From Escherichia phage vB_EcoM_SHAK7693: DNA of 45,233 nt. The notes beneath the pieces were generated by a model. That model did not search any database. It was not told the origin of the DNA and was given only the letters and a program-made list of their open reading frames with translations. Of the stretch, positions 2,769 through 39,969 are shown piece after piece; position 1 is the stretch's first letter; the number at the start of each line of letters is the position of its first letter. Where the stretch lies: the sequence record OR594180. One strand, given 5' to 3'. Position numbers and translations under genes: made by a program.

Positions 2769-3284
2769 AAATCGCGCGGGCATTAACACCATAAAGGCCG
2801 TGTTTGAAAATTGTATTTTGCATCCTTTGGTTTGGTCCTGGAAATCGAAACGAGCAATTTCATTTTTGTATGCCTTAGAAATCTTGTACGCGTCTGCCAA
2901 ATAGCGCAGAGTGAACCCTATACTGTCGACAACACCCGGTGTGATGTGCGCCACGCGTCTCCAGTCAGGAAAGTTTCCTTCTACAACATCTACCGGAAGT
3001 GTACATATAAGCACACGATTATCGTCATAGAAAGATACACTGCCGTTGTCGTGGTTTACCTCTGCGTAGTTAAATTTAGAAGGCTCTCTCCCTTTGATGT
3101 CTATGAGAGTCCCTTTCTCAACGTTGGTCTTCACATTGTCGCAGAACAATCTATGACCGTCCGTAGACACTATCAATCCTTCAGGGTCTATGTAAAAAGC
3201 GTTCAAATAGTAGCGAACATCATTTTTAGCTCTGCATATTTTTGCCCCTACATACGCAGGGAAAGTAATTACTGTAGTAACCAT
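2763..3284 (-). CDS. DnaN-like protein (beta sliding clamp domain II plus C-terminal half of domain III)
   Basis: Motifs DVRYYLN, STDGHRL, GNFPDWRRV, SIGF..YL.D and C-terminal LMPARF match E. coli DnaN residues ~140-366 from memory; own promoter and terminator. Confidence 0.65.
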   Translation of the reverse strand: MVTTVITFPAYVGAKICRAKNDVRYYLNAFYIDPEGLIVSTDGHRLFCDNVKTNVEKGTLIDIKGREPSKFNYAEVNHDNGSVSFYDDNRVLICTLPVDVVEGNFPDWRRVAHITPGVVDSIGFTLRYLADAYKISKAYKNEIARFDFQDQTKGCKIQFSNTAFMVLMPARFK

Positions 3285-3311
3285 TTTGCGTCTCCTGTTT
3301 AAGTTAACTGA

Positions 3312-3340
3312 ATAGTACCCTATTATATTGGTGTCTGCAA
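3312..3340 (-). promoter_or_regulatory. class-A promoter (TTGCAG-N17-TACTATTCA) for DnaN-like gene
   Basis: Conserved element shared with five other loci; correct spacing to ATG at 3284. Confidence 0.5.
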
Positions 3341-3384: not shown

Positions 3385-4428
3385 ATGAGCTTACTTACAT
3401 CTCTAATCAGTCACCAGATATGGCTGCAACGCGCCGCATCCGGTGAAGTGAAAGACCTTACGCCGTTTATTCAGGAGATGCGGGACGAAATCAAACGGCA
3501 GGTGCTGTTATTCGGCGATGACGGGCGAAGCACCGCGCGACTGAATAAATTGTTACGTGACCTCGAAGAAGCACTAATGGGACTTACAGGCGACTGGCAA
3601 ACAAAGCTGACAGAAGACCTTAAGGAACTGGCGGCGTATGAGGCTGAGTGGAACGTAAAAACGCTGACCGCCAACGTAAACGCGGAATTTGTTACACCTA
3701 CCGCTGAGCAGGTATGGGCCGCCGCCGAGTTTCAACCGCTCTCATTAAGCGACAAGCCGGTTGATTTCACTAAGCTGATGTCAGGTTGGGGTGAAACAGA
3801 AGTTGCGCGCCTGGTAACCGGCGTTAAGATAGGCTTTGTTCAGGGCCAAACCACACGGCAGATTGTTAAGAATGTCGTAGGCGCTGGCGGACTGGCGGAC
3901 ATCTCAGAACGTAATGCAGCTACGGTAATCCGCACTGCGTTGTCTCACGTGTCCAACGAAGCACGCAACGAGACGTACCGCCAGAACGACGACATCATCG
4001 AGAAGTACGAATGGGTGTCCACCCTTGACAGCCGTACCAGTACGATTTGCAGAGCCAGAGACGGAATGACGTGGGAAATTGGTAAAGGTCCGATGCCCCC
4101 GGCTCATTTTGGGTGCAGAAGTACCACAGCACCAGTAATCAGTTCAGAATTCGACTTCCTCGATAAAGGCGCAAAACGTGCGGCTAAGGGCGCAGACGGA
4201 GGTACTCAAGTAAGCGCAGACACAACCTATTACGAGTTCCTCAAACAACAACCGGCGTGGTTTCAGGACCAGGCGCTCGGTCCTGTTCGCGGTAAGATTT
4301 TCCGTAACAGCGGTATATCGCCGGAAGAGTTTCGCGTAATATCTGTAGATGGTTTCGGGAATCCGCTCACGCTTAAGCAGATGGCGGAACTCGATAAACG
4401 TGTTGCTGATTATCTGAAAGGGGAATAA
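3385..4428 (+). CDS. head morphogenesis protein (Mu F / SPP1 gp7-like)
   Basis: Motifs TICRARDG and HFGCRS; RBS GGAGGG before ATG 3385; track ORF start 3328 overlaps promoter. Confidence 0.75.
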   Translation: MSLLTSLISHQIWLQRAASGEVKDLTPFIQEMRDEIKRQVLLFGDDGRSTARLNKLLRDLEEALMGLTGDWQTKLTEDLKELAAYEAEWNVKTLTANVNAEFVTPTAEQVWAAAEFQPLSLSDKPVDFTKLMSGWGETEVARLVTGVKIGFVQGQTTRQIVKNVVGAGGLADISERNAATVIRTALSHVSNEARNETYRQNDDIIEKYEWVSTLDSRTSTICRARDGMTWEIGKGPMPPAHFGCRSTTAPVISSEFDFLDKGAKRAAKGADGGTQVSADTTYYEFLKQQPAWFQDQALGPVRGKIFRNSGISPEEFRVISVDGFGNPLTLKQMAELDKRVADYLKGE

Positions 4429-4889
4429 TGATGGGCTTTTTCAAAGTAACTGATGTACCTGCGCGCCGCGTAGTCCAGTACGCCCGTGTGTCTGGCTCTG
4501 GCGAGAACGTGGTGTTTATTGAAGACGAAAGTGTACTAGGTACACCGGTAGATGATATGCCGTTTGCAGATAAAACCGGTATCGCACTCCCTGCGGCGGG
4601 TATGCTTTACGAGGTTCCATATCTGGCTGACGCTGGAGATGTGTATTTCTCTGTACAACCGCAGGGCGCTGAACTGGCGGACGGAAGTGCGACTATCACT
4701 GTCGAGGTTAAGGCAGGCAAAGCGCCATATGCATTTACCTGGTACAAAGACGGTAAGGAAGTGGTAAACGCCCCGGAAGAGGCTTTGTCTCTGACGGTTA
4801 ACGCGGTCGGCGAATACTTCGTTAAAGTTACCGATGCCGATGGCGTAGAGACGGTTAGCAAGGCGGCGAAGGTTACTAAGCCAGAATGA
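4428..4889 (+). CDS. structural protein with C-terminal Ig-like domain
   Basis: C-terminal segment YAFTWYKDGKEV...GEYFVKVTDADG resembles I-set/Big Ig-like fold. Confidence 0.5.
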   Translation: MMGFFKVTDVPARRVVQYARVSGSGENVVFIEDESVLGTPVDDMPFADKTGIALPAAGMLYEVPYLADAGDVYFSVQPQGAELADGSATITVEVKAGKAPYAFTWYKDGKEVVNAPEEALSLTVNAVGEYFVKVTDADGVETVSKAAKVTKPE

Positions 4890-4890
4890 T

Positions 4891-4920
4891 AAAAGGCCCC
4901 GTAAGGGGCCTTAGTTTTAG
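4891..4920. terminator. bidirectional rho-independent terminator
   Basis: AAAAGGCCCC-GTAA-GGGGCCTT then T-rich run. Confidence 0.55.
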
Positions 4921-5108
4921 TTAAGGTACGCGGCTCGCCCCGCCATATAACCAGCAAGATACATTTTAAACCACTCGTTACATTCTCCATTCTCGTAATA
5001 CGCCCCAATCTTCCACATTTCTTTTGCTTCGCGGTCAAAGCGGAAACGACCTTTACAGTTCTTCTCGAATGATTCCATGATTTCGTACCATTCTTTGGAA
5101 TATAACAT
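4917..5108 (-). CDS. hypothetical small protein (63 aa), antisense moron
   Basis: RBS AGGAGG before ATG 5108; own class-A promoter; shares terminator at 4891-4920. Confidence 0.5.
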   Translation of the reverse strand: MLYSKEWYEIMESFEKNCKGRFRFDREAKEMWKIGAYYENGECNEWFKMYLAGYMAGRAAYLN

Positions 5109-5134
5109 TTTTACCTCCTGTTTAATTTAACTGA

Positions 5135-5164
5135 ATAGTACCCTATTATGTTGGTGTCTGTAAA
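5135..5164 (-). promoter_or_regulatory. class-A promoter (TTTACA-N18-TACTATTCA)
   Basis: Near-identical to element at 3312-3340. Confidence 0.5.
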
Positions 5165-5215
5165 CTATTTATTTACGTATCCCAGTTATTCCACCGAATT
5201 GTAAATGTTGGAATA

Positions 5216-5258
5216 AACTATTCGAATAGTTGACTTTTCACTGAAAATGTGCTAAGCT
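5216..5258 (+). promoter_or_regulatory. sigma70-like promoter (TTGACT-N17-TAAGCT) overlapped by perfect 16-bp palindrome AACTATTCGAATAGTT
   Basis: Palindrome 5216-5231 is a dyad of the ACTATTC half-site found in class-A/B promoters. Confidence 0.45.
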
Positions 5259-5435
5259 CCACCTGAGCTTGTGAAGTATGAACAAGCGACCGCGGCGCGG
5301 GCGGGTAACGGAGCGGGACGTAAGTCCTGAGTGTAGTTACGCTGACGCGTTCGGAAGGGCCATACTCTATTGCTTGTGTAAAAAGTAACTGGTTTACTGA
5401 GATTACGCCGTTTCTATGTTTAAATGATAAGGACT

Positions 5436-5467
5436 AGCGCCCCGCTTTAAGGCGGGGCTTTACTTAT
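5436..5467 (+). terminator. rho-independent terminator
   Basis: GCCCCGC-TTTAAG-GCGGGGC followed by TTTACTTAT. Confidence 0.5.
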
Positions 5468-5482
5468 CGAGAAAGGAGAAAC

Positions 5483-5869
5483 ATGAATCTTAAAGCAACT
5501 GTCGTAGCGGGAGCATGTTTCATCACGCTGACTTACGCACACGGCATCTACCAGTATCGCAGCGGCTGGAACGAAGGCCGGGCGAATCTCGTTTCGCAGC
5601 AACAGCAGAAAGCACAGGCTGAGCTGACGAAGAAAACACAACGGCAGCAGCAGGATGAATCAAAGGCCGCCGCCGCTGACAACGAAGGCAAGACGAAATC
5701 AGAGGTGATTACCCGTGAAGTCGTTAAGTACATTAAAACGCCTGGCCGCAGCGTGTGCACTTTCGACGATGCTCGCGTCCTGCTCAAGTCCCACGCCGTT
5801 GCCAACGCCAATTCCATCCCCGGATACGACGATGATGCAGCCGCCGTGCAAACTGGTGCCGCCAAGTAG
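5483..5869 (+). CDS. i-spanin (Rz-like)
   Basis: N-terminal TM helix, long Q/A/K-rich coiled coil; o-spanin ORF embedded in +1 frame. Confidence 0.65.
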   Translation: MNLKATVVAGACFITLTYAHGIYQYRSGWNEGRANLVSQQQQKAQAELTKKTQRQQQDESKAAAADNEGKTKSEVITREVVKYIKTPGRSVCTFDDARVLLKSHAVANANSIPGYDDDAAAVQTGAAK

Positions 5870-5978
5870 CGACGCTGACGAGGATTTAGCTATCGACGTT
5901 CAGAACACCGAATGCGTACGGCAACTGAGGCTGAAAGTGTTCACGTTGCAGGATTACGTGAGGAATATTCTGGAATAG
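5715..5978 (+). CDS. o-spanin (Rz1-like lipoprotein)
   Basis: GTG start with RBS GAGGTG; signal peptide with lipobox LASC; Pro-rich PTPLPTPIPSP; overlaps Rz-like gene. Confidence 0.65.
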   Translation: MKSLSTLKRLAAACALSTMLASCSSPTPLPTPIPSPDTTMMQPPCKLVPPSSDADEDLAIDVQNTECVRQLRLKVFTLQDYVRNILE

Positions 5979-6060
5979 TTGCCTTGCATGTTGGAATAAT
6001 TTATTCTTGACATGTAAATCCGGGAGGCCCGGATTCCAACGTCCAGGGGACATACTGACT

Positions 6061-7814: not shown

Positions 7815-7830
7815 GGTTAAGCTATAATCG

Positions 7831-7858
7831 AGAGGGACTTCGGTCCCTCTTTTCATTT
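7831..7858 (+). terminator. rho-independent terminator after capsid gene
   Basis: AGAGGGAC-TTCG-GTCCCTCT then TTTTCATTT. Confidence 0.6.
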
Positions 7859-12314: not shown

Positions 12315-12340
12315 AAGGCCCCTTTCGGGGCCTTTTCTTA
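12315..12340. terminator. bidirectional rho-independent terminator
   Basis: GGCCCC-TTTC-GGGGCC then TTTTCTTA. Confidence 0.55.
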
Positions 12341-14284: not shown

Positions 14285-14325
14285 GGTGTAGCTCCTGTTT
14301 GAGTTAACATTGTTGGTGTAAGTGA

Positions 14326-14354
14326 ATAGTATCCTATTATGTTGGGGTGCGCAA
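14326..14354 (-). promoter_or_regulatory. class-A promoter (TTGCGC-N17-TACTATTCA) for antisense island
   Basis: Conserved element upstream of island. Confidence 0.5.
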
Positions 14355-14462
14355 GTAATGTGATAGAATAATTTTGCGCCTAGTGTCGCACACGAAAAGC
14401 GGGTGGTTCCCGTCTGGCGCATTTACCATTAACCTGTAACCTCTTAACCAAAGGATTAAAGA

Positions 14463-23136: not shown

Positions 23137-25374
23137 ATGTCAAGCGGATGCGGTGACGTTTTAAGCCTGGCGGATTTACAAACCGCCAAGAAGCACCAGA
23201 TTTTCGAAGCTGAGGTTATCACCGGTAAATCCGGCGGTGTTGCTACGGGTGCTGATATCGATTACGCGACAAATCAGGTTACTGGGCAGACACAGAAGAC
23301 GTTACCTGCCGTGTTGCGTGATGCTGGTTTTTCTCCTGTATCGTGGGACTTTTCTACAGGCGGTACGTTAACAGTTAATGACCGCGACAAAGTGGTGTAC
23401 GACCCTGTAAGTAAAACGTGGTACTCGTACGCGGGGACGTTACCAGTTACAGTTCCCGCGAGTTTTAATCCTGTAGGTAACGCTAACTGGAGTCCACAGA
23501 CCGATCCTAATTTACGTGGTGAGTTATCCATCATTGAAAACATAGCTGAGCTTATGTCTAAAACGCCAAACCCAGAACTCACGTACACCGTGAAAGGCTA
23601 TGCCCCCGGTACGACTTTCGGCGGGGGCATTTTCTACTGGGACGCCACCCTCCCTAAGTCACAACACAACGGCATCACTGTATTTAGTCCAACGGTGCCA
23701 TGGGACGGAACCTACACCACTCTCGCGACCTTCTTAGCTGGCACAGGGGAAACCACCCCATCCGGCAGAGGATGCTGGGTCCGTATGCAGAACAGCCGCG
23801 ACATGCTCGTTTCTTGGGGCGGCGTTGACATCACAGGGACGAACGTTGCGGACGCCGCTGTAACCGCTGTTATTAAGTATGCTAATACGGTCAAGCGTTC
23901 TGTTAGATTTGACTCTGGTGCAAATATTAAATGGGGCTTCTCTACCCTTGTCCAGCACTTTGACAAGTTCAATCTTAATGTGCAATGTTCTGTTGTTCTG
24001 GAGAATATCAGCGGGATTAAGGTTTACGCGGAGAATGACGTTGAGTTCAACACTGACCACCCTACTTATGCGGAGCGTGTTGTCTTTCGCCTTAAAAACT
24101 GTAGCGAAGTGGAATTCTCTGGATTCAACTTCAACTCCAATTTCGCCGACTATTCGACGACGACATCGGACACTACGTACAAGCCCCAAGAATGGTGGCA
24201 GGGCTTCACAGCCGAAGGTTGTTCTAATCTAGAAATCACTAAGCATCACGTTAATGCGTGCCAAGTATTTGTAAGGGCTGATTGTACAAACTTAGCAGCA
24301 AACCTTCATAACAAAGATATTCATGTTACAGATAACATGTTTAAGTATGTAACGAATTACTGCGTTATTTCCAGAAACATAAATCTGGTTGAATTCAGCC
24401 GCAACAAGGTTTCATTTAACGGGAGGAAATGGGATACCTTTGGTGAAGCGTTCGCTCCAACAACAGGCTCTCTCAATATAATTGCTAGAGATAATATTTT
24501 TACTGACCAGATTGCGCAACAGTCGTGTATAACTCCGACGATAGGCGCTTTATCTGTAACTATTCAGGGTAACTATTGCCGGCGGCAGTATGGTATTTTT
24601 GTTGAACTCGGTAGTTCAAGCAATGTGTTAATTTCTGGTAATACATCGATAAGTACCGGTGAGCGCGCTGATACAACACACATTCTTTTGATTGGGGCGG
24701 TAGATGGCAATCCGGCAGGTGGGCTTTCAAACGTAAACATTACCGCAAACTATTTTCAAGGCGGTGGTTTTGCCATTCAAGAATACAATACCGGAAACGC
24801 ATTGCGCACTGGGTTCAGTATAACTAATAATCATATGATTGACTGCAAATTACCAGCCATCACTAACCAATCTTACATTGGTGTTGTAGTTCGCGGTAAC
24901 TATATGGAAGCACCCACTAACTTTCCTGATTTAGCTATCGCAGGACAGAGGCCTGTTATAGACAGTAACATGTTTGTTGGTGTTAGGGTGCGTGCAAGAG
25001 ATTTAGGGTATAGCGTAATAGCTCCTAAGGTAACCAACAATGTATGGAGAGCAAACTCCCTGGGGGAATCATATCCAGCACTTATCGACTATACCGAATT
25101 CACCGCATTAGTGGCGGATGGCAACGACTCAACAGCAGCGGCGTACACGGACTTCATTGTCCACCCTTCAAATTGTAATAATGCAGGGTTCCGCAGAGTA
25201 GGCCATACCGAAGGGTTTACTGTCAGCCCTACTGCAAGATTTGGAGCCAAGCTCACTGATGCCAGAGTAGGTGATTTTGTAGCTAATTCGTCCCCTACAG
25301 CATCTGGTGCTTATGCGTGGGTATGCGTTAACCGATCAACAAAAGCGTTCAGTTCTATCGCATTGAGCGCATAA
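23137..25374 (+). CDS. tailspike / receptor-binding protein with beta-helix repeats
   Basis: 745 aa; Asn/Gly/Ile/Thr-rich repeats typical of right-handed beta helix; last structural gene. Confidence 0.6.
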   Translation: MSSGCGDVLSLADLQTAKKHQIFEAEVITGKSGGVATGADIDYATNQVTGQTQKTLPAVLRDAGFSPVSWDFSTGGTLTVNDRDKVVYDPVSKTWYSYAGTLPVTVPASFNPVGNANWSPQTDPNLRGELSIIENIAELMSKTPNPELTYTVKGYAPGTTFGGGIFYWDATLPKSQHNGITVFSPTVPWDGTYTTLATFLAGTGETTPSGRGCWVRMQNSRDMLVSWGGVDITGTNVADAAVTAVIKYANTVKRSVRFDSGANIKWGFSTLVQHFDKFNLNVQCSVVLENISGIKVYAENDVEFNTDHPTYAERVVFRLKNCSEVEFSGFNFNSNFADYSTTTSDTTYKPQEWWQGFTAEGCSNLEITKHHVNACQVFVRADCTNLAANLHNKDIHVTDNMFKYVTNYCVISRNINLVEFSRNKVSFNGRKWDTFGEAFAPTTGSLNIIARDNIFTDQIAQQSCITPTIGALSVTIQGNYCRRQYGIFVELGSSSNVLISGNTSISTGERADTTHILLIGAVDGNPAGGLSNVNITANYFQGGGFAIQEYNTGNALRTGFSITNNHMIDCKLPAITNQSYIGVVVRGNYMEAPTNFPDLAIAGQRPVIDSNMFVGVRVRARDLGYSVIAPKVTNNVWRANSLGESYPALIDYTEFTALVADGNDSTAAAYTDFIVHPSNCNNAGFRRVGHTEGFTVSPTARFGAKLTDARVGDFVANSSPTASGAYAWVCVNRSTKAFSSIALSA

Positions 25375-25389
25375 AACTACGGCCCCTAT

Positions 25390-25415
25390 ACGGCCCCTAA
25401 CGGGGCCTTTTTCTT
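25390..25415. terminator. rho-independent terminator
   Basis: GGCCCC-TAAC-GGGGCC then TTTTTCTT. Confidence 0.55.
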
Positions 25416-25551
25416 ACTCTTCTGATAACTTCTCCAGTACAAACGCCAGTTGCGCATTAGCGGCATCTCTTTGCTGGCGTAGGCGTAGAACCTCCTCCTC
25501 GAGTTCCTTGATACGTTTTTGCAATGCTGGAATAGGGGCTTCTAAATTCAT
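25414..25551 (-). CDS. hypothetical small coiled-coil protein (45 aa)
   Basis: Hand-translated; ATGA overlap with upstream gene. Confidence 0.35.
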   Translation of the reverse strand: MNLEAPIPALQKRIKELEEEVLRLRQQRDAANAQLAFVLEKLSEE

Positions 25552-25781
25552 TTAGAAATTCTCCATACGATCGGTACTAGAGCCAAGAATCGTCCAAGTC
25601 GCGTTTTACCCTTACATTGTATTAAATTCCAGTTAATAAACTTTATTTTTGCGGCATTTTCGGGTGTTACACCCAAATCAGAAGACAATAATACCGCAGC
25701 TTTTTCTCTGTGATTTGCTATGTACACACCCCCACTGCCGTCTATTGTCACTTCTTTAGCCAAATGTTGTTTAATCTTCAT
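25548..25781 (-). CDS. hypothetical protein (77 aa)
   Basis: ORF overlapping helicase stop. Confidence 0.45.
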   Translation of the reverse strand: MKIKQHLAKEVTIDGSGGVYIANHREKAAVLLSSDLGVTPENAAKIKFINWNLIQCKGKTRLGRFLALVPIVWRISK

Positions 25782-27202
25782 TTCTTACCTCGTCTCTTCA
25801 TGTAATTAAGCAATTCTTCCTGGACCGATTTCTTCTCGTCGGTACGCGCGGCAACAACCTCATCCAGCGTGTCTCGGGCTATTATTTGATAAATGAATAC
25901 AGACCTTTTGTATCCAGATTGCATCTGCCTTACCGGACCTATGCGCTCGATAACCTGCAGATAATGTTCCAGGTTCCATCCCTGACTCATAAAAGCCATG
26001 TGGTGTCCGCCGTGTTGTAGCGACAGCCCGTGACCCGCAGAGGCCGGGTGTATTAGGAGCATAGGTATCTCGCCACGGTTCCACGCTTCCATCTGCTTAT
26101 TACCCTTAGCGCCTTTGGCAAACGCCTGGGCTTGAGGGAATCGCTTAAGGATACGTTCCAGTTCGTGCTTGAACTGATAGGCCACCAGTAACGGTGCCCC
26201 CTGTAACTCCTCAACAATGGACTCGAGCGCATCCAGTTTCGTATCGTGCACTTTCTCCCAGTCTTTGGTTGCTTCTCCGTCTGGCCCCGATACATATACA
26301 GCGCCGGATGCAATCTGTAGGCACTTCGACGTCTTCGCGGCAGCGTTAGCCGCTTCAACTTCTCCGCTCTCCAGTTCCGCGAATAACTTTTCCTCCATAT
26401 CGATGTACGCCTGACGCGCCTTCTTCGGCAGGTCAATTTCCACTGGCACGATAATCGGCGCTTCGCAACCAAACCACTCGGCGGCGTCAACCGTGAGACT
26501 AATGTCTTTCATCTTCTGATGAATCTCATTATCCGCACCCGGTCGTGCGTGATACTCCCGCGCCATCGCGGATTTCCCTTTCTGTACCGAGTTAAACCAG
26601 CGGTCTGTGAATGCCGTGTACGAAGAACCAAGGCGCTCGCCAGCGTCGATAAACCAGTTCTGCCCCCACAAGTCCTTGAGGCCGTTCGGCGACGGTGTGC
26701 CTGTCAGGTTAATGAAACGCTTAACCTTTCCGAACGCCACTTTGCTTAGCGCCTTAGCCCGTTTGCTTCCTCCAGAACGGCTACGGAAAGATTTCAGCTT
26801 CGTGCTCTCATCAGCAACGATAACCGTAAAAGGCCAGTCGTCTTTGCCGTAGTAGTCAATCAGCCACTCGATAACTTCGTAGTTTGTGCACACCACGTTA
26901 GCATCTGACTCCAGCGCCGCGATACGGCGCTTCTCTGAACCGGTTGCGTCTACGACACTCAGACAGGGGAAGTTCCAACGTGCCTGTTCCGCGGGCCACG
27001 TACCTGACGCAACACGTAAAGGAGCCAGAATTAACACTCGGTCGTCGTCATTAAGTTGCCCATTACGGAACAGCCGATTGAGAACCCACAACGTTGACCC
27101 CGACTTACCGCTGCCCATGCTCGCCCAGATATTGCAGCGATGGTGCCGCAGCATGAACGAAGTCATGAGCTTCTGGTATTCGCGCCTTTGAAACTTACTC
27201 AT
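25778..27202 (-). CDS. SNF2-family helicase
   Basis: Walker A GSGKS, DEST box, LTGTP, C-terminal helicase motif GHGLSLQ. Confidence 0.8.
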   Translation of the reverse strand: MSKFQRREYQKLMTSFMLRHHRCNIWASMGSGKSGSTLWVLNRLFRNGQLNDDDRVLILAPLRVASGTWPAEQARWNFPCLSVVDATGSEKRRIAALESDANVVCTNYEVIEWLIDYYGKDDWPFTVIVADESTKLKSFRSRSGGSKRAKALSKVAFGKVKRFINLTGTPSPNGLKDLWGQNWFIDAGERLGSSYTAFTDRWFNSVQKGKSAMAREYHARPGADNEIHQKMKDISLTVDAAEWFGCEAPIIVPVEIDLPKKARQAYIDMEEKLFAELESGEVEAANAAAKTSKCLQIASGAVYVSGPDGEATKDWEKVHDTKLDALESIVEELQGAPLLVAYQFKHELERILKRFPQAQAFAKGAKGNKQMEAWNRGEIPMLLIHPASAGHGLSLQHGGHHMAFMSQGWNLEHYLQVIERIGPVRQMQSGYKRSVFIYQIIARDTLDEVVAARTDEKKSVQEELLNYMKRRGKK

Positions 27203-28061
27203 TTACCGCCCCCATGAATGCCTTTATAAATTCAGCGGCTACTTGCGGGACGATGGCATTGCCATAACCGCGCAATCGTCCCACTCTGGCGGGTATCCCA
27301 TTAGCCAGCGGGAATGCGCCGGGTTCAACTGGCCTGAATTTTCCATCCCGGCATCCGAGCCAGTCAGTATCTGACCAGAAGCCGTGATGCGGATTGGTTG
27401 TGTTATTTTCAGACCCTGCTCCGTCGAGTAGTCCAGCCTGTCGAATGTTCTGTCTTTTCCGTCCTTGCGAATAACTGTCTCTCCGCTCCCTCTGTAATCG
27501 TTCGCTGTTGGGGTCGGCCATGCCAAAAGGTATTGTGCGTGCGTCGCCAGATTGCAATTCGCATTCGGTCTGTTGAAGCGTTTTTCCGCGTAGGCTTGTG
27601 GGTCTTTCGCTCTGCTGTTGTTGTCGTCCGCAACCGCTGGCGTCGGCCAGGTTGTGCGCGCCGAAGAACAGTCTGTCGCGTTTGTGCGGTGCGCCGACGC
27701 TACAAGCTGGGAGTACGGCAAACCCGACGGCGTAGTCTTCTCCTTCCAGGTGAGTTTGTAAATCGCACATCCACGATTTTGCAATTGCTGGCGCAACCTG
27801 CTCCCCAAAGAGGACTGGAGGTCGGCACTCGCTGATAAGGTCGAGGAACACAGGTGCGAGGTGTCTCTGGTCGAACTGTCCGAGTTGCTTTCCCGCCGCG
27901 CTAAACGGTTGGCAAGGCGGGCTTCCCGTCCAGAGAGGCGCATCTTCCGGAACTCCCGCAAGTCTGAGCGCGAGAGGCCAGCCGCCGATACCAGCGAAAA
28001 AAATGACACTGGGTGAACCCGTCAAGGTCTTCTGGCTTAACTTCGGTAATGCTTCTTTCAT
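27195..28061 (-). CDS. DNA (cytosine-5)-methyltransferase-like protein
   Basis: Motifs FAGIGG (I), PPCQPFS (IV), GEQV (VI), KRDRLFF (VIII), GNAIVP (X); motif I to IV spacing unusually short. Confidence 0.6.
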   Translation of the reverse strand: MKEALPKLSQKTLTGSPSVIFFAGIGGWPLALRLAGVPEDAPLWTGSPPCQPFSAAGKQLGQFDQRHLAPVFLDLISECRPPVLFGEQVAPAIAKSWMCDLQTHLEGEDYAVGFAVLPACSVGAPHKRDRLFFGAHNLADASGCGRQQQQSERPTSLRGKTLQQTECELQSGDARTIPFGMADPNSERLQRERRDSYSQGRKRQNIRQAGLLDGAGSENNTTNPHHGFWSDTDWLGCRDGKFRPVEPGAFPLANGIPARVGRLRGYGNAIVPQVAAEFIKAFMGAVNE

Positions 28062-28149
28062 CTACAACTCCAAAAGGTATGTGACCCTGCTTTATTAATT
28101 CACGCAGCCACGCTGCCGCGCTTTTATCCCATTCATTGTAGTAATTCAT
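27901..28149 (-). CDS. ORF overlapping 5' end of methyltransferase in another frame
   Basis: ATGA-coupled to upstream gene; N-terminus carries NEWDK-like motif; A7/T7 tract at 27997-28003 at frame junction. Confidence 0.3.
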   Translation of the reverse strand: MNYYNEWDKSAAAWLRELIKQGHIPFGVVDERSITEVKPEDLDGFTQCHFFRWYRRLASRAQTCGSSGRCASLDGKPALPTV

Positions 28150-28337
28150 TTCGCCACCAGAACTAACTCTTTACGCCCGAACGCCGTAACGTTACCGGTT
28201 ACGTCTTCGATAACCAGTTTACCGTTCGACTCGACGAACACCGTATCAACGGCAACAGGACGACGGGTCTTAACGTTGAAAATCATGTCGCCCGGTACGA
28301 TGTCACGTGCTGGTTTGCGGTCATATTCGTGTTTCAT
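28146..28337 (-). CDS. hypothetical protein (63 aa)
   Basis: RBS AAGGA; first gene after class-B promoter. Confidence 0.45.
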   Translation of the reverse strand: MKHEYDRKPARDIVPGDMIFNVKTRRPVAVDTVFVESNGKLVIEDVTGNVTAFGRKELVLVAK

Positions 28338-28367
28338 TTATCAATTCCTTATATTGTTGGTGTATGA

Positions 28368-28652
28368 CTAACTATAATAGTTCGCTATTAGGTCGTCAAC
28401 CTGTTTAAACGAACCAACGACAAAAACATTCGCACCACGTTTACGCATCCGCTCATGCTCCCGTAACTGGTGCGGGTCAGGCTTCGTGTTCTCGTCTTTC
28501 TTCACCTCGACGAACCAGATGACGCCGCCGGGGAGAATTATCAGCAGGTCAGGAGCGCCCACTCTATTTTCGTACGACAATTTGCGTACAAGGCCCCCCA
28601 GGGCCTCGAATCGGTCTTTTGCGTATTTCTGAATCTTGCCTTCCGGGGTCAT
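28368..28652 (-). CDS. VRR-NUC domain nuclease
   Basis: GAPDLLIILPGG...FVEVK PD-(D/E)XK-like core; ATGA-coupled start. Confidence 0.65.
   Translation of the reverse strand: MTPEGKIQKYAKDRFEALGGLVRKLSYENRVGAPDLLIILPGGVIWFVEVKKDENTKPDPHQLREHERMRKRGANVFVVGSFKQVDDLIANYYS
28371..28399 (-). promoter_or_regulatory. class-B promoter (TTGACG-N17-TATAGT)
   Basis: Near-consensus sigma70 hexamers; spacer contains GCGAACTAT element shared with 32100 and 34976. Confidence 0.45.
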
Positions 28653-28801
28653 GACCGCAGAACCCAAGTTATAAACGCCCCGCCGAGAACGGCAACGCCA
28701 ACAAACTTAAAGAACAGGCCATAACAGAACATCGCGGCTATCCCCGCACCGAGTAACAGTGCGAGCATGGTTACTATCGTCCAAAATACAAACATTGTCA
28801 T
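28649..28801 (-). CDS. small membrane protein (50 aa)
   Basis: Hand-translated; hydrophobic; RBS GGAGG; ATGA-coupled. Confidence 0.35.
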   Translation of the reverse strand: MTMFVFWTIVTMLALLLGAGIAAMFCYGLFFKFVGVAVLGGAFITWVLRS

Positions 28802-28887
28802 AATACGCACCCCTCCCGTTTTGTATGCTCAATGCCACAGCGCGGACAGATTCGGCAGTCTTCTTCGTAGAACCAGTAAATTTTCAT
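28798..28887 (-). CDS. micro-ORF (28 aa) with CxxCxxC
   Basis: Hand-translated; ATGA overlaps at both ends. Confidence 0.25.
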   Translation of the reverse strand: MKIYWFYEEDCRICPRCGIEHTKREGCVL

Positions 28888-29015
28888 TCCAGCACCCACA
28901 GATAAATTGCGACTAACATACCCAATACGGCGACCATCATGCCGTATTGACCCTCGTGGCAGTAGACACCGGCGGTGAATCCCGCCAGTACTGCGATAAT
29001 CAGTTTACTTAGCAT
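28884..29015 (-). CDS. small membrane protein (43 aa)
   Basis: Hand-translated; hydrophobic; starts inside polymerase 3' end. Confidence 0.3.
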   Translation of the reverse strand: MLSKLIIAVLAGFTAGVYCHEGQYGMMVAVLGMLVAIYLWVLE

Positions 29016-31206
29016 AGCGTTTTAACTCCTGCCCTTCCGCTACAAGAGGGAACCCCTCGGCCCACTCAGGCAGAGAACACATTAATTTTTCCAGTTCGGC
29101 CACCGTGTACTCAGGGGTATCTGGGGTTTCACATACCAGTTCATCGTGTACCGAAAGCACGATAGGATACCCGCCACGCTCAACGTTAATCATCGCATAT
29201 GCCAGTAAATCACGGCACAGCGCCTGGACAATGTTTTCACATGCTTTACCGCCGTGGGTGTATAGAGTTGTCCATTGGCGGGTTAACTGGTTTTCGCCCT
29301 GATACTTGATTCGGACATTCGTGTTTACCCGTCCATCTTCGTCTGTTTCCTTTGTCACACTAACGCCGATTCCCGGATACGAGAGGATACGGCCTGACGG
29401 CAACTCCATACACAACCACCAGCCAGGAACCTTCCTGCCCGACGAATCAAATTCTACGGTACGCCATATGCGGATAGCCCTTTCACCATTCCGGCGCAAG
29501 TGTGCCCCGGCCCAAAATTCACGACCAGGATTACGAACAGCGGCTAAAATTCCGTCTTTAAGGTCGCGCCAGAACGCTACTGTTTCCGGGTGTGACTCGC
29601 GCCACATACGCTTGATTGCATCACATGTGCGCCACACTTTCTTGTCCAGAATATATGATGGTCGGTCATCCTTTTCACCAGGATGCGGTGGTCGCTTGGC
29701 TTCCTGAATACGCGCCCACTCATACCCACGTGCGGTAGCAGCCCAGATGTGGTCGGGGAAAGTCCCGTCCATTGTTTTTGCCATCTCAATAAGGTCAAGA
29801 CCTAAGTTTTTAGCAAACGTAACGAACGCTCCGACGCCGCCCTCGTAGCCGAGACCCAGTTCGCATGCTTTGCCTATCTGTCTGATTTCCTTAAAGTTTT
29901 TCTTAATATCGTCGGGGTCCATGCCAAACATCTTACCTGCGGTTACACAGTAAATATCCAGTCCGGCACGGAACGTATCGAGCGCGGTTTCTTCTCCTGC
30001 TAACCACGCTAACCCACGACCTTCGACGTTAGAGTAATCAGCTACGACAAACTTGTGCCCGGCTTCCGGTATGATGCAGCTACGGACCGTCGATGCCGTC
30101 AGCTTGGCTACGTCAAATCGGCGGTGAGCACGACCCTTAAGTAACGCTGAAATGCCTTTATCCAGTTCATCATCGTGATAGTAACCGCGCGCCAGGTTCT
30201 GCGGCTGAAAGCCTTTACCCGCCCATCGCAGAGTGCGTTTTGCCCCGCCGTACTGCAAGCAACCACGACGGCGGTCGTCAGACGAGCGGCCCAACAGAAG
30301 CGGGTTATATTTCGTGGACGCTGTTGACGCGGCACCGAGGCGCATTTCGATAATCGTCCGGGCGTCGTCCGGTAAATCATCATCTGCCAACAGGTCGTTA
30401 AGCGTAGACTTCTGCGCGTTGTGAATACGGTGCGCAGGCGCAAGTTCACGCAGAATCGGCAGAAAGTCCTTACCCGTAAGCGAGCCTCCGTATTTGCGCT
30501 GGGCTTCTTCCTGTAACTGCGCTTTATGTTTCTCTACGGCATCAATAGCGGCTTCCGCCAGTGCGACGTCAACCTTAAACCCGCGGTCATTAATTAACTG
30601 GTCCAGTTCCAGTACGCGGTCCTCGAACTCGGAGTTACCCCAACGCGGCAGCTTATGGAAGACTTCACGCATCGCAGTGATGTCGCTCACGGCGTACTTG
30701 ATGAACAGCTCCCACTCATCAGGGTGTGTTTCGGCGGTGTAGCGTCTGATTTTGTAGTTCTTCGGCGTCGGCTTAGAGAAACGCTGAATCAGCGCCTTGC
30801 CGCGTTTATCTTTCGCATTGTCAGCGGACACGCCCAGCACTTCGCACAACGCATCAAGTGACCCCGGCAGCGCGTGACGAAACGCCCAAATCATTGTATC
30901 AATGGTGTTGCTTACGGGAATATCAAAACCCCAGCAGTTCTTCATGATGAGTCTGTCGAACATTGAGCCGTTGTGCCACACCATCTTAATACGACTGTTC
31001 GGCTTAACTAGGCGGCGTAACGCGCGATACAAATCTCCCGGCATGTCGCTGCCATCGGTGCAATCCCACACCTGTACAGGCTCGTCATCAAAAGCATAGG
31101 TACAGATAAGCACTTCGGTTGACGGGTGTTCGGCGTAAGCGTAGGACCCGACTTTCTTTAAATCGGCTTCGGAGAATGTTTCAAAGTCCAGGTATAAGTA
31201 GCTCAT
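29005..31206 (-). CDS. DNA polymerase I (family A) with 3'-5' exonuclease domain
   Basis: N-terminal LYLDFETFS exo motif; DYSNVEGR and RQIGKACELGLGYEGG palm motifs. Confidence 0.85.
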   Translation of the reverse strand: MSYLYLDFETFSEADLKKVGSYAYAEHPSTEVLICTYAFDDEPVQVWDCTDGSDMPGDLYRALRRLVKPNSRIKMVWHNGSMFDRLIMKNCWGFDIPVSNTIDTMIWAFRHALPGSLDALCEVLGVSADNAKDKRGKALIQRFSKPTPKNYKIRRYTAETHPDEWELFIKYAVSDITAMREVFHKLPRWGNSEFEDRVLELDQLINDRGFKVDVALAEAAIDAVEKHKAQLQEEAQRKYGGSLTGKDFLPILRELAPAHRIHNAQKSTLNDLLADDDLPDDARTIIEMRLGAASTASTKYNPLLLGRSSDDRRRGCLQYGGAKRTLRWAGKGFQPQNLARGYYHDDELDKGISALLKGRAHRRFDVAKLTASTVRSCIIPEAGHKFVVADYSNVEGRGLAWLAGEETALDTFRAGLDIYCVTAGKMFGMDPDDIKKNFKEIRQIGKACELGLGYEGGVGAFVTFAKNLGLDLIEMAKTMDGTFPDHIWAATARGYEWARIQEAKRPPHPGEKDDRPSYILDKKVWRTCDAIKRMWRESHPETVAFWRDLKDGILAAVRNPGREFWAGAHLRRNGERAIRIWRTVEFDSSGRKVPGWWLCMELPSGRILSYPGIGVSVTKETDEDGRVNTNVRIKYQGENQLTRQWTTLYTHGGKACENIVQALCRDLLAYAMINVERGGYPIVLSVHDELVCETPDTPEYTVAELEKLMCSLPEWAEGFPLVAEGQELKRYAK

Positions 31207-32099: not shown

Positions 32100-32128
32100 A
32101 CTATAATAGCTAACTATTCAGGTGTCAA
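32100..32128 (-). promoter_or_regulatory. class-B promoter (TTGACA-N17-TATAGT)
   Basis: Consensus -35; spacer TGAATAGTTAGCTAT. Confidence 0.45.
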
Positions 32129-32132
32129 CACT

Positions 32133-34975: not shown

Positions 34976-35004
34976 ACTATAATAGCGAACTATTCACATG
35001 TCAA
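34976..35004 (-). promoter_or_regulatory. class-B promoter (TTGACA-N17-TATAGT)
   Basis: Consensus hexamers; divergent from HTH regulator gene. Confidence 0.45.
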
Positions 35005-35068: not shown

Positions 35069-35284
35069 ATGCAACCATCTGAACTAGGCATCCGTGTAGA
35101 ACAACGCCGTAAAGAACTCGGCATCTCCCAACGTCGTCTGGCTGTTCTGACCGGCGTTTCCCAGGGCGCGATTAACCAGCTTGCACTCGGTGTAACCCAG
35201 GACGTCCGCCCGGCAACGCTGTTTAAACTGGCGGAAGTGCTGGAAGTAGACGCCAAGTGGCTGGCGTTAGGTGAAGGGGCTTAA
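35069..35284 (+). CDS. XRE-family HTH transcriptional regulator
   Basis: ISQRRLAVLTGVSQGAINQL helix-turn-helix; RBS AAGGAG. Confidence 0.7.
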   Translation: MQPSELGIRVEQRRKELGISQRRLAVLTGVSQGAINQLALGVTQDVRPATLFKLAEVLEVDAKWLALGEGA

Positions 35285-35300
35285 GCCCCTTTCTTTTTAT
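35268..35300 (+). terminator. rho-independent terminator
   Basis: GGGGCTTAAGCCCC palindrome then TTTCTTTTTATT. Confidence 0.5.
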
Positions 35301-37932: not shown

Positions 37933-38166
37933 TTATTCCAGGTCTTCTAAAGTGGCGGCCATTCCGCGAACTTCAGCAACAGCGCTATATTTCCCACCAA
38001 CATTTTTCACGACACCGGATTTAACCAGTACCCTCAACGACCCTTCAATAATGGCTGAACTATAGTACTTAAAATAACTACGGCGCAAGTCCATAACGCT
38101 GCACGACCCTTTTTTGCGGGTTAACGAAACGACCGCCGTAAATACGCGTGACTGGAACTCGGTCAT
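37933..38166 (-). CDS. hypothetical protein (77 aa)
   Basis: ORF between regulator and primase/helicase. Confidence 0.45.
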   Translation of the reverse strand: MTEFQSRVFTAVVSLTRKKGSCSVMDLRRSYFKYYSSAIIEGSLRVLVKSGVVKNVGGKYSAVAEVRGMAATLEDLE

Positions 38167-38333
38167 TTAACGTTCTCCTTAATCCACGCTTCCACTTTCT
38201 CTGGGTCAAACGTACCCGGCTGCCGGCGGCCCATAATGCGGATACAACAATCCGGGAACTTCCCACTCTTTAACCAGTTATTAAGCGTGCGGCGAGTAAC
38301 CCCAATACGCTCAGCTACCTCATTCTGTGTCAT
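38163..38333 (-). CDS. AlpA-like HTH DNA-binding protein
   Basis: MTQNEVAERIGVTRRTLNNW helix-turn-helix; RBS GAGGG. Confidence 0.55.
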   Translation of the reverse strand: MTQNEVAERIGVTRRTLNNWLKSGKFPDCCIRIMGRRQPGTFDPEKVEAWIKENVK

Positions 38334-38394: not shown

Positions 38395-38764
38395 ACATAA
38401 TCGCACCTATTGACATTATGGAAATCTTCGTTTAAGGTGCTTCTATATCTTAGTTACTTTTATTCCTGTTCACCTTGTAAGAATGTTTAACCCGTGCGTC
38501 AAGCAAAGGGTTAAACACAGGCTTACTGAACATTAGAATTATAGTAACTTTCCTTCCTAAGTATCTCCAGTTGCCTTGGGCAAGCTCTATTCTCATCGGC
38601 AGCATATATCTTAAGTATCTGATTTTCTTAAAGTGCCGTAGATTCGCAACCGTAAAAATGTAACGATTATTGGGCAGGCCTTAAGCCTGCCCTTTAGTTA
38701 CCAAGTAATAAGAATAAAGGCACAACCTTCCCCGAAGAATCACAACGGCAACGTAACTATTCTC

Positions 38765-38793
38765 TTGCACACCCCAATATAATAGGATACTAT
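38765..38793 (+). promoter_or_regulatory. class-A promoter (TTGCAC-N17-TACTATTCA)
   Basis: Conserved element; extra AACTATTC half-site about 20 bp upstream. Confidence 0.5.
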
Positions 38794-38827
38794 TCACTTA
38801 TCGGAACGAGACAGAGGAGTTGGGGTT

Positions 38828-39730: not shown

Positions 39731-39807
39731 TGTTCTATTTCACCAAACGCAACAATCGAAGCGACTATTGCAGGAGATGCAACAATACAAACACCAATAA
39801 AATTTAC

Positions 39808-39836
39808 TTGCACACTGGGATAGAATAGGCTACTAT
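39808..39836 (+). promoter_or_regulatory. class-A promoter (TTGCAC-N17-TACTATTCA)
   Basis: Conserved element. Confidence 0.5.
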
Positions 39837-39969
39837 TCATTTACACGAACGAGGGGGGAGACGGAATATGATTCCTGGGCATTAGGCGAACTGGTAGATG
39901 CTTACGAAATAATGGGTAGCACTTCGGTGCGCGACGGTGACACTAAAGCGATAAAAATGGGGGTTGAGG

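Follow-up and report, generated by a model that had tools for sequence, protein, structure and literature searches.

What does a phage make from a promoter that is followed by some 200 nucleotides (nt) without a sizeable open reading frame (ORF)? The question is raised by positions 5160-5470 of a 45,233-nt stretch of Escherichia phage vB_EcoM_SHAK7693 (record OR594180; "the window" below means this whole stretch), where an earlier note, made from the letters of the window, had seen a perfect 16-base-pair (bp) palindrome at such a promoter and had offered two answers, a non-coding RNA or a leader peptide. We find strong support for the first: this promoter very probably gives rise to a non-coding RNA that is conserved and structured, and the RNA is a previously undescribed family and not a small protein gene. 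For its function, which we infer, our favoured reading is a cis-acting leader that governs the passage of RNA polymerase into the late operon, and we give this reading a probability of roughly 40%.

What lifts the locus above chance is its conservation and not the palindrome, since positions 5178-5482 match 180 phage records at 95-99% identity and the RNA is more conserved than the genes that flank it. Against the relatives that were fetched, the 5' part of the RNA has a median identity of 98.2% and the 3' part a mean of 98.7%, as compared with 86% for the Hoc-like gene upstream and 92%, 90% and 89% for the spanin, scaffold and capsid genes downstream. In some Salmonella phages (skrot, ER23 and others), a module with 95% DNA identity is joined to a spanin with 65-76% protein identity, indicating that the module has been exchanged as a unit with its boundary at the spanin start codon. 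We call this form the Kagunavirus type; a diverged homologue, the Jerseyvirus type, is present in 269 records, with the Hoc terminator directly on one side of it and the spanin gene on the other, and its copies score 40-46 bits against the covariance model of the Kagunavirus type. Together the two types account for ~450 of the ~511 records with a spanin homologue, in both Escherichia and Salmonella phages, and at this site the module of promoter and RNA is a constant part of Kagunavirus and Jerseyvirus genomes. Pattern scans across viral sequences, metagenomes and genomes yielded ~90 copies, including, besides the common form A, the variants A', B, C, D and E, which differ mainly in the apical half of a long hairpin described below.

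The promoter that heads the module had been given in the earlier note as TTGACT-N17-TAAGCT, and these elements are present on the plus strand, with the -35 hexamer at 5230-5235 and the -10 hexamer at 5253-5258. To them we add a TG at 5250-5251 (TGc, 5250-5252), which makes this an extended -10 promoter. A consensus promoter scan missed it because TAAGCT agrees with TATAAT at only three of six positions, and such a hexamer can still work because of the extended -10 TG. In the Jerseyvirus type the promoter reads TAGACT-17-TGt-TACGCT: hexamers, 17-bp spacing and TG are kept while the spacer sequence diverges, the usual signature of a real sigma-70 promoter. Copies of the module at a second genomic site, taken up below, are headed by the same core promoter. 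Comparison across the two types thus shows positions 5230-5258 to be a host sigma-70 promoter, predicted to start a non-coding RNA at ~5265, a start point placed from the position of the -10 hexamer.

The first 111 nt of this RNA (5265-5375, plus strand) form a conserved structured domain that consists of a 5'-terminal hairpin, a long three-part hairpin and a tail. The terminal hairpin, P1 (5267-5272/5282-5287), starts 2 nt from the inferred 5' end; the long hairpin is built from P2 (5290-5299/5346-5354, with C5293 bulged), P3 (5302-5309/5336-5344, with G5341 bulged) and P4 (5314-5319/5324-5329, closed by a GUAA loop), with an internal loop GGAGC / GAGUGUA, and the single-stranded tail reads AAGGGCCAUACUCUAUUGCUU. 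Given an ordinary MAFFT alignment of 26 different sequences, RNAalifold predicts P1 and P2, with P3 and P4 in part; this structure was refined to P1-P4, a covariance model (R1) was built from it, and all copies were realigned. The 5' domain of the window matches the covariance model at 136 bits. In the realigned Kagunavirus-type sequences, which are fitted to the model and so favour the structure, 96.6% of cells pair, as against 31-40% when partners are slid by 1-3 columns, and seven pairs change on both sides, including four of the six P4 pairs. P4 alone occurs as GGGAC/GUCCU, CGGAC/GUCCG, GUGCC/GGCAC, GGUGC/GCACU and CACGUC/GACGUG, and one P2 pair varies among C-G, U-A and A-U. When the Jerseyvirus type is included, in an alignment fitted in the same way, 95.2% of cells pair (29-41% in the slid-partner controls), with two-sided changes in 16 of the 29 pairs; P1 is wholly replaced, from GCUUGU/ACAAGC to UACGCU/AGCGUA.

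Minimum-energy folds of three single variants give all four helices independently, and the window sequence on its own folds into the same structure. A long-range pairing, GCGGCG/CGCCGU, that appears in one minimum-energy fold was rejected, as it competes with P2, which covariation supports. P2 also contains two invariant G-U pairs, which would be C-A mismatches on the opposite strand, and this marks the plus strand as the functional one. Conservation among the unpaired nucleotides covers the internal loop (GRAGC facing KAGYGUA), the bulged C in P2 and the tail AAGGGCC..CUAUUGCUU, and the apical loop of P4 varies (GUAA, GUUAA, AUUA, GUCA, UCG, CACA). The GC-richness and stem potential remarked on in the earlier note are borne out, in that positions 5265-5362 have 61% G+C, as against 50.5% in the window, and are folded. 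The covariance and folding comparison with related phages that it had proposed thus comes down on the side of the non-coding RNA, whose secondary structure has been preserved through compensatory changes in five variants of the Kagunavirus type and in the diverged Jerseyvirus type.

Beyond the 5' domain, the RNA runs through an A+U-rich stretch (73 nt at 33% G+C) into a conserved long hairpin. The A+U-rich part holds a small hairpin on the plus strand at 5384-5398 (AGUAA-CUGGU-UUACU), taken from the fold and confined to the Kagunavirus type: relatives mostly differ from it within the loop or by a change to a G-U pair, a pair is broken in two of them, and the Jerseyvirus type does not have it. 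The long hairpin at 5426-5468 has an outer stem GAUAAG/CUUAUC, an inner stem GCCCCGC/GCGGGGC (5439-5458) and a tail UUUACUUAUC. The earlier note had placed a terminator at 5436-5467, and a terminator-like GCCCCGC-TTTAA-GGCGGGGC, followed by TTTACTTATC, is indeed found at 5439-5458. The inner stem has compensatory variants (GCCCUGC/GCAGGGC, GCCCGGC/GCCGGGC and GCCCGAC/GUCGGGC), and the outer stem becomes AUACG/CGUAU in the Jerseyvirus type. In this 3' part the two types share the motifs AGAUU(A)CGCCGU and AUGUUUA as well as the long hairpin, with both of its stems covarying.

In the window the long hairpin ends 14 nt before the start codon of the inner spanin (i-spanin); in both types its end is 13-15 nt upstream of the spanin Shine-Dalgarno sequence, with no promoter between. 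The Shine-Dalgarno sequence AAGGAG and the ATG at 5483 (5472-5485, plus strand) follow the hairpin in an arrangement shared by all loci of the two types. Partial termination could take place at the tail of the Kagunavirus type, UUUACUUAU; the tail of the Jerseyvirus type, UUAGCGUAU, which has no U tract, looks like a poor terminator tail and would hardly allow it, suggesting that the RNA there is probably the 5' untranslated region of the spanin messenger RNA (mRNA). Judged by its sequence, the hairpin at 5426-5468 is a candidate for either a leaky terminator or a structural or processing hairpin.

The 5' domain is also found away from the spanin genes. Many contigs (L029, L009, L047, L005/L039, L040/L041 and L003/L054) carry a second copy of the core promoter and 5' RNA domain ~10.6 kb upstream, where it diverges from a small helix-turn-helix gene and has a long terminator of its own; next in line is the conserved early promoter of an operon of small genes, holin and endolysin. 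About 54 of the 180 phage records, or some 30% of the Kagunavirus type, have this second place. Contigs with two copies always carry different variants (A+B, A+C, A'+D, C+B or A+E), which may serve to avoid long direct repeats or may reflect different specificities. The window itself has one copy, as neither the full model with filters off nor a self-BLAST finds a second. Its second site is taken by an unrelated cassette of the same layout at 38411-38700, divergent from an HTH_17 gene: a promoter-like site TTGACA-17-TAAGGT (38411-38439), ~230 nt without a convincing ORF, and a terminator (38672-38692) after which comes the conserved early promoter. The region 38400-38715 aligns with the paralogous copies in its flanks only. 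The cassette is possibly a further RNA gene or leader; it occupies this site more often than the second copy does, with homologous DNA in 397 phage records and ~77% identity in Jerseyvirus; the annotation of phage Bas73 places a minus-strand coding sequence over it.

Neither the E. coli genome nor known RNA families contain a counterpart. The E. coli genome has no match to the RNA, and no Rfam 15 family matches it at the gathering score; at E <=10 for the window and E <=1 for the Jerseyvirus type and variant B there is noise or nothing (wcaG, E = 0.9, among others). The phage intergenic candidate RNAs in Rfam are defined in a like manner, by conservation and covariation in a fixed genomic context. 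ARAGORN finds no tRNA or tmRNA in the window. The tRNA-Ser that it calls, and that is annotated, in some Jerseyvirus records (L099, 1154-1232 on the minus strand; MT074462; MW355464) covers the end of the Hoc-like gene together with the terminator there, on the other strand, and is almost certainly spurious. The covariance models have no match in two more distant relatives, Serratia phage Otaku and Klebsiella phage Kp4887-1. Otaku (L100, 1330-1495) has a different G+C-rich leader before its spanin gene, with a TATGCT -10 and the motif CCAUUCGGAAAG, and no terminator-like hairpin was seen before the gene on reading its sequence; in Kp4887-1 an endolysin-like coding sequence, recognized by eye, lies directly upstream of the spanin homologue. 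One match in a bacterial genome is a variant D copy on a 6.2-kb contig (L097, JAEWLW010000073.1) binned as 'Bacillota bacterium', probably a phage contig binned by mistake.

We favour action of this RNA in cis for several reasons. In 180 plus 269 of the ~511 records, the spanin ribosome-binding site comes immediately after the module, with no promoter between; a U tract is missing from the hairpin of the Jerseyvirus type; the promoter and its RNA are kept, and have been duplicated, as a single unit that is always oriented with the downstream operon; a terminator stands after each second-site copy; and the late unit holds further terminators, at 7830-7851 and 12315-12334, with no promoters after them. 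We propose that the RNA acts as leader of the operon for spanins, scaffold, capsid and tail, and that it would do so on its own transcription complex or transcript, enabling RNA polymerase to pass the leader hairpin or terminator and then the two internal terminators. The element would in that case be a processive antitermination leader of the nut or put kind, working with or without a small phage protein, and the GAATA/TATTC dyads at the promoter, including the palindrome centred at -41.5, would be the site at which a dimeric regulator times its firing.

The layout most resembles that of the lambdoid operon leaders, namely nut, put and the 6S leader of PR'. In phage lambda, PR' produces a 194-nt '6S' leader that ends at the terminator tR', which is read through once the Q protein has modified the polymerase. 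The promoter described here shares with PR' a TTGACT -35, a 17-bp spacer and a weak -10, and both are followed by an untranslated leader of ~200 nt ending in an intrinsic terminator, with lysis genes next and then head and tail genes (here spanins, scaffold and capsid). A -10-like repeat, TGAGCT at 5263-5268, which is a candidate for a pause element in the initially transcribed region, resembles TAAGCT but lacks the critical A at position 2, and the Jerseyvirus type has an exact TACGCT repeat after its promoter; both repeats are at the same time the 5' strand of P1. Unlike the lambda leader, to whose folding no function has been assigned to our knowledge, the RNA here has a strongly covarying fold. 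The lambda nutL and nutR sites consist of boxA and a boxB hairpin bound by the N protein. Like nut, the RNA stands in the leaders of two operons, upstream of terminators, and would load a factor onto elongating polymerase; unlike nut, it has no conserved boxA-like sequence and no identified N-like protein, and its conserved part is an internal loop whereas the apical loop of P4 is variable.

The put RNAs of phage HK022, ~70 nt with two stem-loops, make E. coli RNA polymerase resistant to terminators without the aid of a protein (PMC9378689). Here too a promoter-proximal RNA of two stem-loops, made by host polymerase, has terminators downstream of it: P1 and the P2-P4 hairpin follow from 2 nt after the inferred start, and the 3' hairpin or terminator comes ~75 nt further on. 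Two diverged copies can head two operons, as with put (in relatives; the window has one), and no antiterminator protein is recognizable among those of the phage that were scanned. The RNA is, however, larger than put (~96 nt folded plus a 20-nt tail), takes the form of a short 5' hairpin and one long three-part hairpin, and is carried by a virulent siphovirus. Put suppresses termination independently of protein through the zinc-binding domain of the beta' subunit, whereas for the present RNA antitermination is a prediction. The boldest form of our proposal is that the RNA represents, next to HK022 put and with an unrelated structure, a second class of antiterminator RNA that modifies polymerase without a protein and drives the late (and in some genomes an early) operon of virulent Guernseyvirinae through intrinsic terminators; we regard this specific version as decidedly unlikely.

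Several observations weigh against a cis-acting leader that controls polymerase passage. Neither the 5' domain nor its tail is complementary to the terminator arms, and thus no switch of the classical attenuator or riboswitch kind is visible; likewise, no pairing to the Shine-Dalgarno sequence is conserved. Models R1 and R2, run with filters off on positions 24000-31000 of HK022, which should span both put sites, give a best hit of E = 9.2 and 5 bits, and we conclude that the RNA is not a member of the put family. No antiterminator of the Q, N or AlpA family, and no sigma factor, was recognized among 20 candidate proteins scanned, in a phage with many more small proteins of unknown function, or in the annotation of the curated relative Bas73. 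The module's terminator at the second site has an independent promoter after it, an arrangement that fits a self-contained RNA gene equally well, and the unrelated cassette present there in the window and most relatives implies that the RNA is not needed at that place. Finally, the near-identity within each type may come in part from recombination at the module boundary and not from function. A time-course transcriptome of a Kagunavirus covers genes alone and does not mention the leader region (PMC12645636), and the literature searched holds nothing on RNAs in these phages or on the timing of their late genes.

The main rival to a cis-acting leader is a stand-alone small RNA of ~195-200 nt that ends at 5439-5458 and acts in trans, pairing with host or phage mRNAs or sequestering a host protein, with spanin expression arising by leakage only. 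The second site speaks for it: the copies there close with strong terminators, the genes beyond them have a separate promoter, and the site holds interchangeable cassettes of promoter, ~250 nt and terminator, as expected of RNA genes. The seven G-C pairs and partly U-rich tail of the Kagunavirus-type hairpin, the 98.7% conservation of an unstructured 3' part, which would fit a sequence-specific interaction, and a hairpin 2 nt from the 5' end, typical of stable RNAs, all point the same way. The missing U tract of the Jerseyvirus-type hairpin does not, and all copies of the module stand at the head of an operon, none of them in opposite orientation. Nor does the RNA have an extended antisense match in the phage genome or any similarity in E. 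coli, and the part common to both sites is the highly paired 5' domain, which would make a poor pairing seed. Action in trans is therefore possible but doubtful.

Alternatively, the leader could be passive, its 5' and 3' hairpins serving only to stabilize or process the late mRNA, as a block to RNase E or a site for RNase III, with no effect on RNA polymerase or timing. P1 lies suitably close to the 5' end, 2 nt from it, and the 3' hairpin, a ~20-bp duplex with an internal loop and two covarying stems, resembles phage RNase III sites; a hairpin without a U tract also follows the spanin genes, at 6018-6036. A protective hairpin, however, needs no conserved internal loop (GRAGC / KAGYGUA), bulge or 20-nt tail, and here all three are kept across two genera and two genomic sites. 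We consider a purely passive role unlikely.

A riboswitch-like sensor, in which the 5' domain would be the aptamer and the site-specific 3' parts, with their terminators, the expression platforms, is very improbable. A conserved 5' domain followed by variable, terminator-bearing 3' parts at two sites is what such a sensor would look like, its unpaired junction nucleotides are conserved, and GCGGC in P2 could pair with a GCCGU present in each of the 3' parts. But no alternative pairing reaches the terminator arms, the terminator stands 70-110 nt from the domain, and no known riboswitch class matches at E <=10 for the window or <=1 for the Jerseyvirus type and variant B. Even less can be said for a transcription-primed replication origin. 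RNA-DNA hybrid origins of this kind are known from ColE1 and from oriF and oriG of phage T4, and the elements of one could be read into the locus: a strong promoter, a G-rich transcript (61% G+C) and an A+U-rich unwinding stretch (73 nt at 33% G+C) that together would give a persistent RNA-DNA hybrid, in a phage with a T7-like replication module (the annotation of a relative lists a gp2.5-like single-strand binding protein, a DNA polymerase and a helicase-primase) and with two copies in some genomes. The G-U pairs and compensatory changes nevertheless indicate a folded, free RNA and not a hybrid, and the replication genes are far away from the module, which sits among the clustered structural genes.

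That the locus encodes a small protein or leader peptide is almost certainly wrong: the ATG-initiated ORF of 36 codons at 5278-5388 on the plus strand (MNKRPRRGRV..., the longest between promoter and terminator, as the earlier note had it at about 35 codons), although annotated as a 'hypothetical protein' in GenBank for Snoke, fBC-Eco01, Bas73 and others, has no Shine-Dalgarno sequence, has its ATG within the P1 loop, shows substitutions that alter the amino acid, and is frameshifted, shortened, start-less or absent in relatives, being cut to 9 amino acids in five distinct relatives and to 17 in one, without its start in another, and lacking any counterpart in the Jerseyvirus type or paralog variant B.

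The cis-acting leader that we favour would be timed through the DNA upstream of its promoter. The palindrome AACTATTCGAATAGTT lies at 5216-5231, as the earlier note had reported, centred at -41.5 from the inferred start and overlapping the -35 by 2 bp; it has no other match in the window at <=3 mismatches. Perfect 16-bp palindromes are expected by chance at 0.74 per 45 kb, with at least one in 53% of first-order Markov simulations, and the palindrome is therefore not significant on its own. The window total is two, the other being AGGGGCTTAAGCCCCT at 35275-35290, which is the terminator hairpin after the HTH_3 (XRE-like) gene. Among 50 distinct Kagunavirus-type sequences the palindrome is perfect in 43, and the other seven have uncompensated single changes or cannot be read at that position. 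It is missing from the second-site copies of the same promoter, and Jerseyvirus has just a weak dyad at its position, shifted by one base; a symmetric co-variation between the genera was rejected on account of the 1-bp shift in the alignment. As an operator for a dimeric regulator the palindrome is plausible.

Better conserved than the palindrome is a dyad whose right half forms part of it, GAATA-AAC-TATTC at 5211-5223 (centre ~-48). It is a candidate regulator site kept in both genera, with GAATA-CTT-TATTC at an equal distance from the -35 in the Jerseyvirus type, and it recurs in the window at 5994-6006. Further upstream, an inverted repeat with arms TTATTCCA (5186-5193) and TGGAATAA (5209-5216), 15 bp apart, keeps its TTATTCC...GGAATA in register in the Jerseyvirus type, and we infer a putative binding site here as well. 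The upstream part of the promoter is repeated after the outer spanin (o-spanin) gene as ATGTTGGAATAA-TTTATTC-TTGACA (5986-6012), with a strong hairpin that lacks a U tract, AATCCGGGAGGCCCGGATT at 6018-6036, and then the scaffold gene behind it; the TTGACA at 6007 was considered as a promoter and rejected, as no usable -10 follows it.

The earlier note had tied the palindrome to two other promoter classes through the half-site ACTATTC. This sequence is enriched in the window (16 occurrences, 4.9 expected) and does occur in both classes, but in different parts of them, so the link is ambiguous: in class A it overlaps the -10 hexamer of TTGCAC-17-TACTAT, and in class B it lies within the spacer of leftward TTGACA-17-TATAGT promoters. 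A shared regulator is thus possible but not required. Class A is a conserved ~45-bp block found on the minus strand at 3280-3330, 5110-5165 and 14300-14360, where it drives reverse-oriented genes inserted within the late region, and on the plus strand at 38745-38800 and 39790-39845, where it heads early genes. Together with leftward TTGACA-17-TATAGT promoters near 32100-32130 and 34976-35004, these blocks hold 8 of the 16 ACTATTC copies and make up much of the enrichment. As for the two proteins named in the earlier note as possible binders of the palindrome, the XRE-like one (35069-35284) is an HTH_3 protein, and the label 'AlpA-like' proves loose for the other, a 56-amino-acid protein at 38163-38333 on the minus strand that matches Pfam HTH_17 (E = 2e-7) and not the AlpA family model.

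By BLAST, the window is assigned to the Guernseyvirinae as a Kagunavirus-like phage, and its best matches, E. coli Kagunavirus phages, cover 79-86% of the first 25 kb at 87-92% identity. The module is flanked on one side by the gene for a Hoc-like head decoration protein (4428-4889), which ends in a bidirectional terminator at 4893-4912, and on the other by the overlapping genes for i-spanin (5483-5869) and o-spanin (5715-5978), after which come the genes for scaffold and major capsid protein. A variable insertion slot (4913-5177) separates the Hoc terminator from the conserved module. In the window it is occupied by a minus-strand ORF of 63 amino acids at 4917-5108, which has its own promoter, no Pfam match and no full-length match in any fetched relative; in relatives the same slot holds a beta-clamp-like, RusA-like or Dam gene.

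Guernseyvirinae such as Kagunavirus and Jerseyvirus are common phages of E. coli and Salmonella and are often proposed for therapy. The module is the one non-coding element that is more conserved than the genes around it, and it is placed where control of the late operon is expected. In many GenBank records an RNA feature should take the place of the 'hypothetical protein' annotated at this locus, and a defined RNA, together with a defined promoter and operator region, is now open to testing. If the RNA is a small RNA, these phages would encode an abundant regulator whose targets are to be found; if instead it modifies RNA polymerase, a mechanism known from essentially one phage family would be widened.

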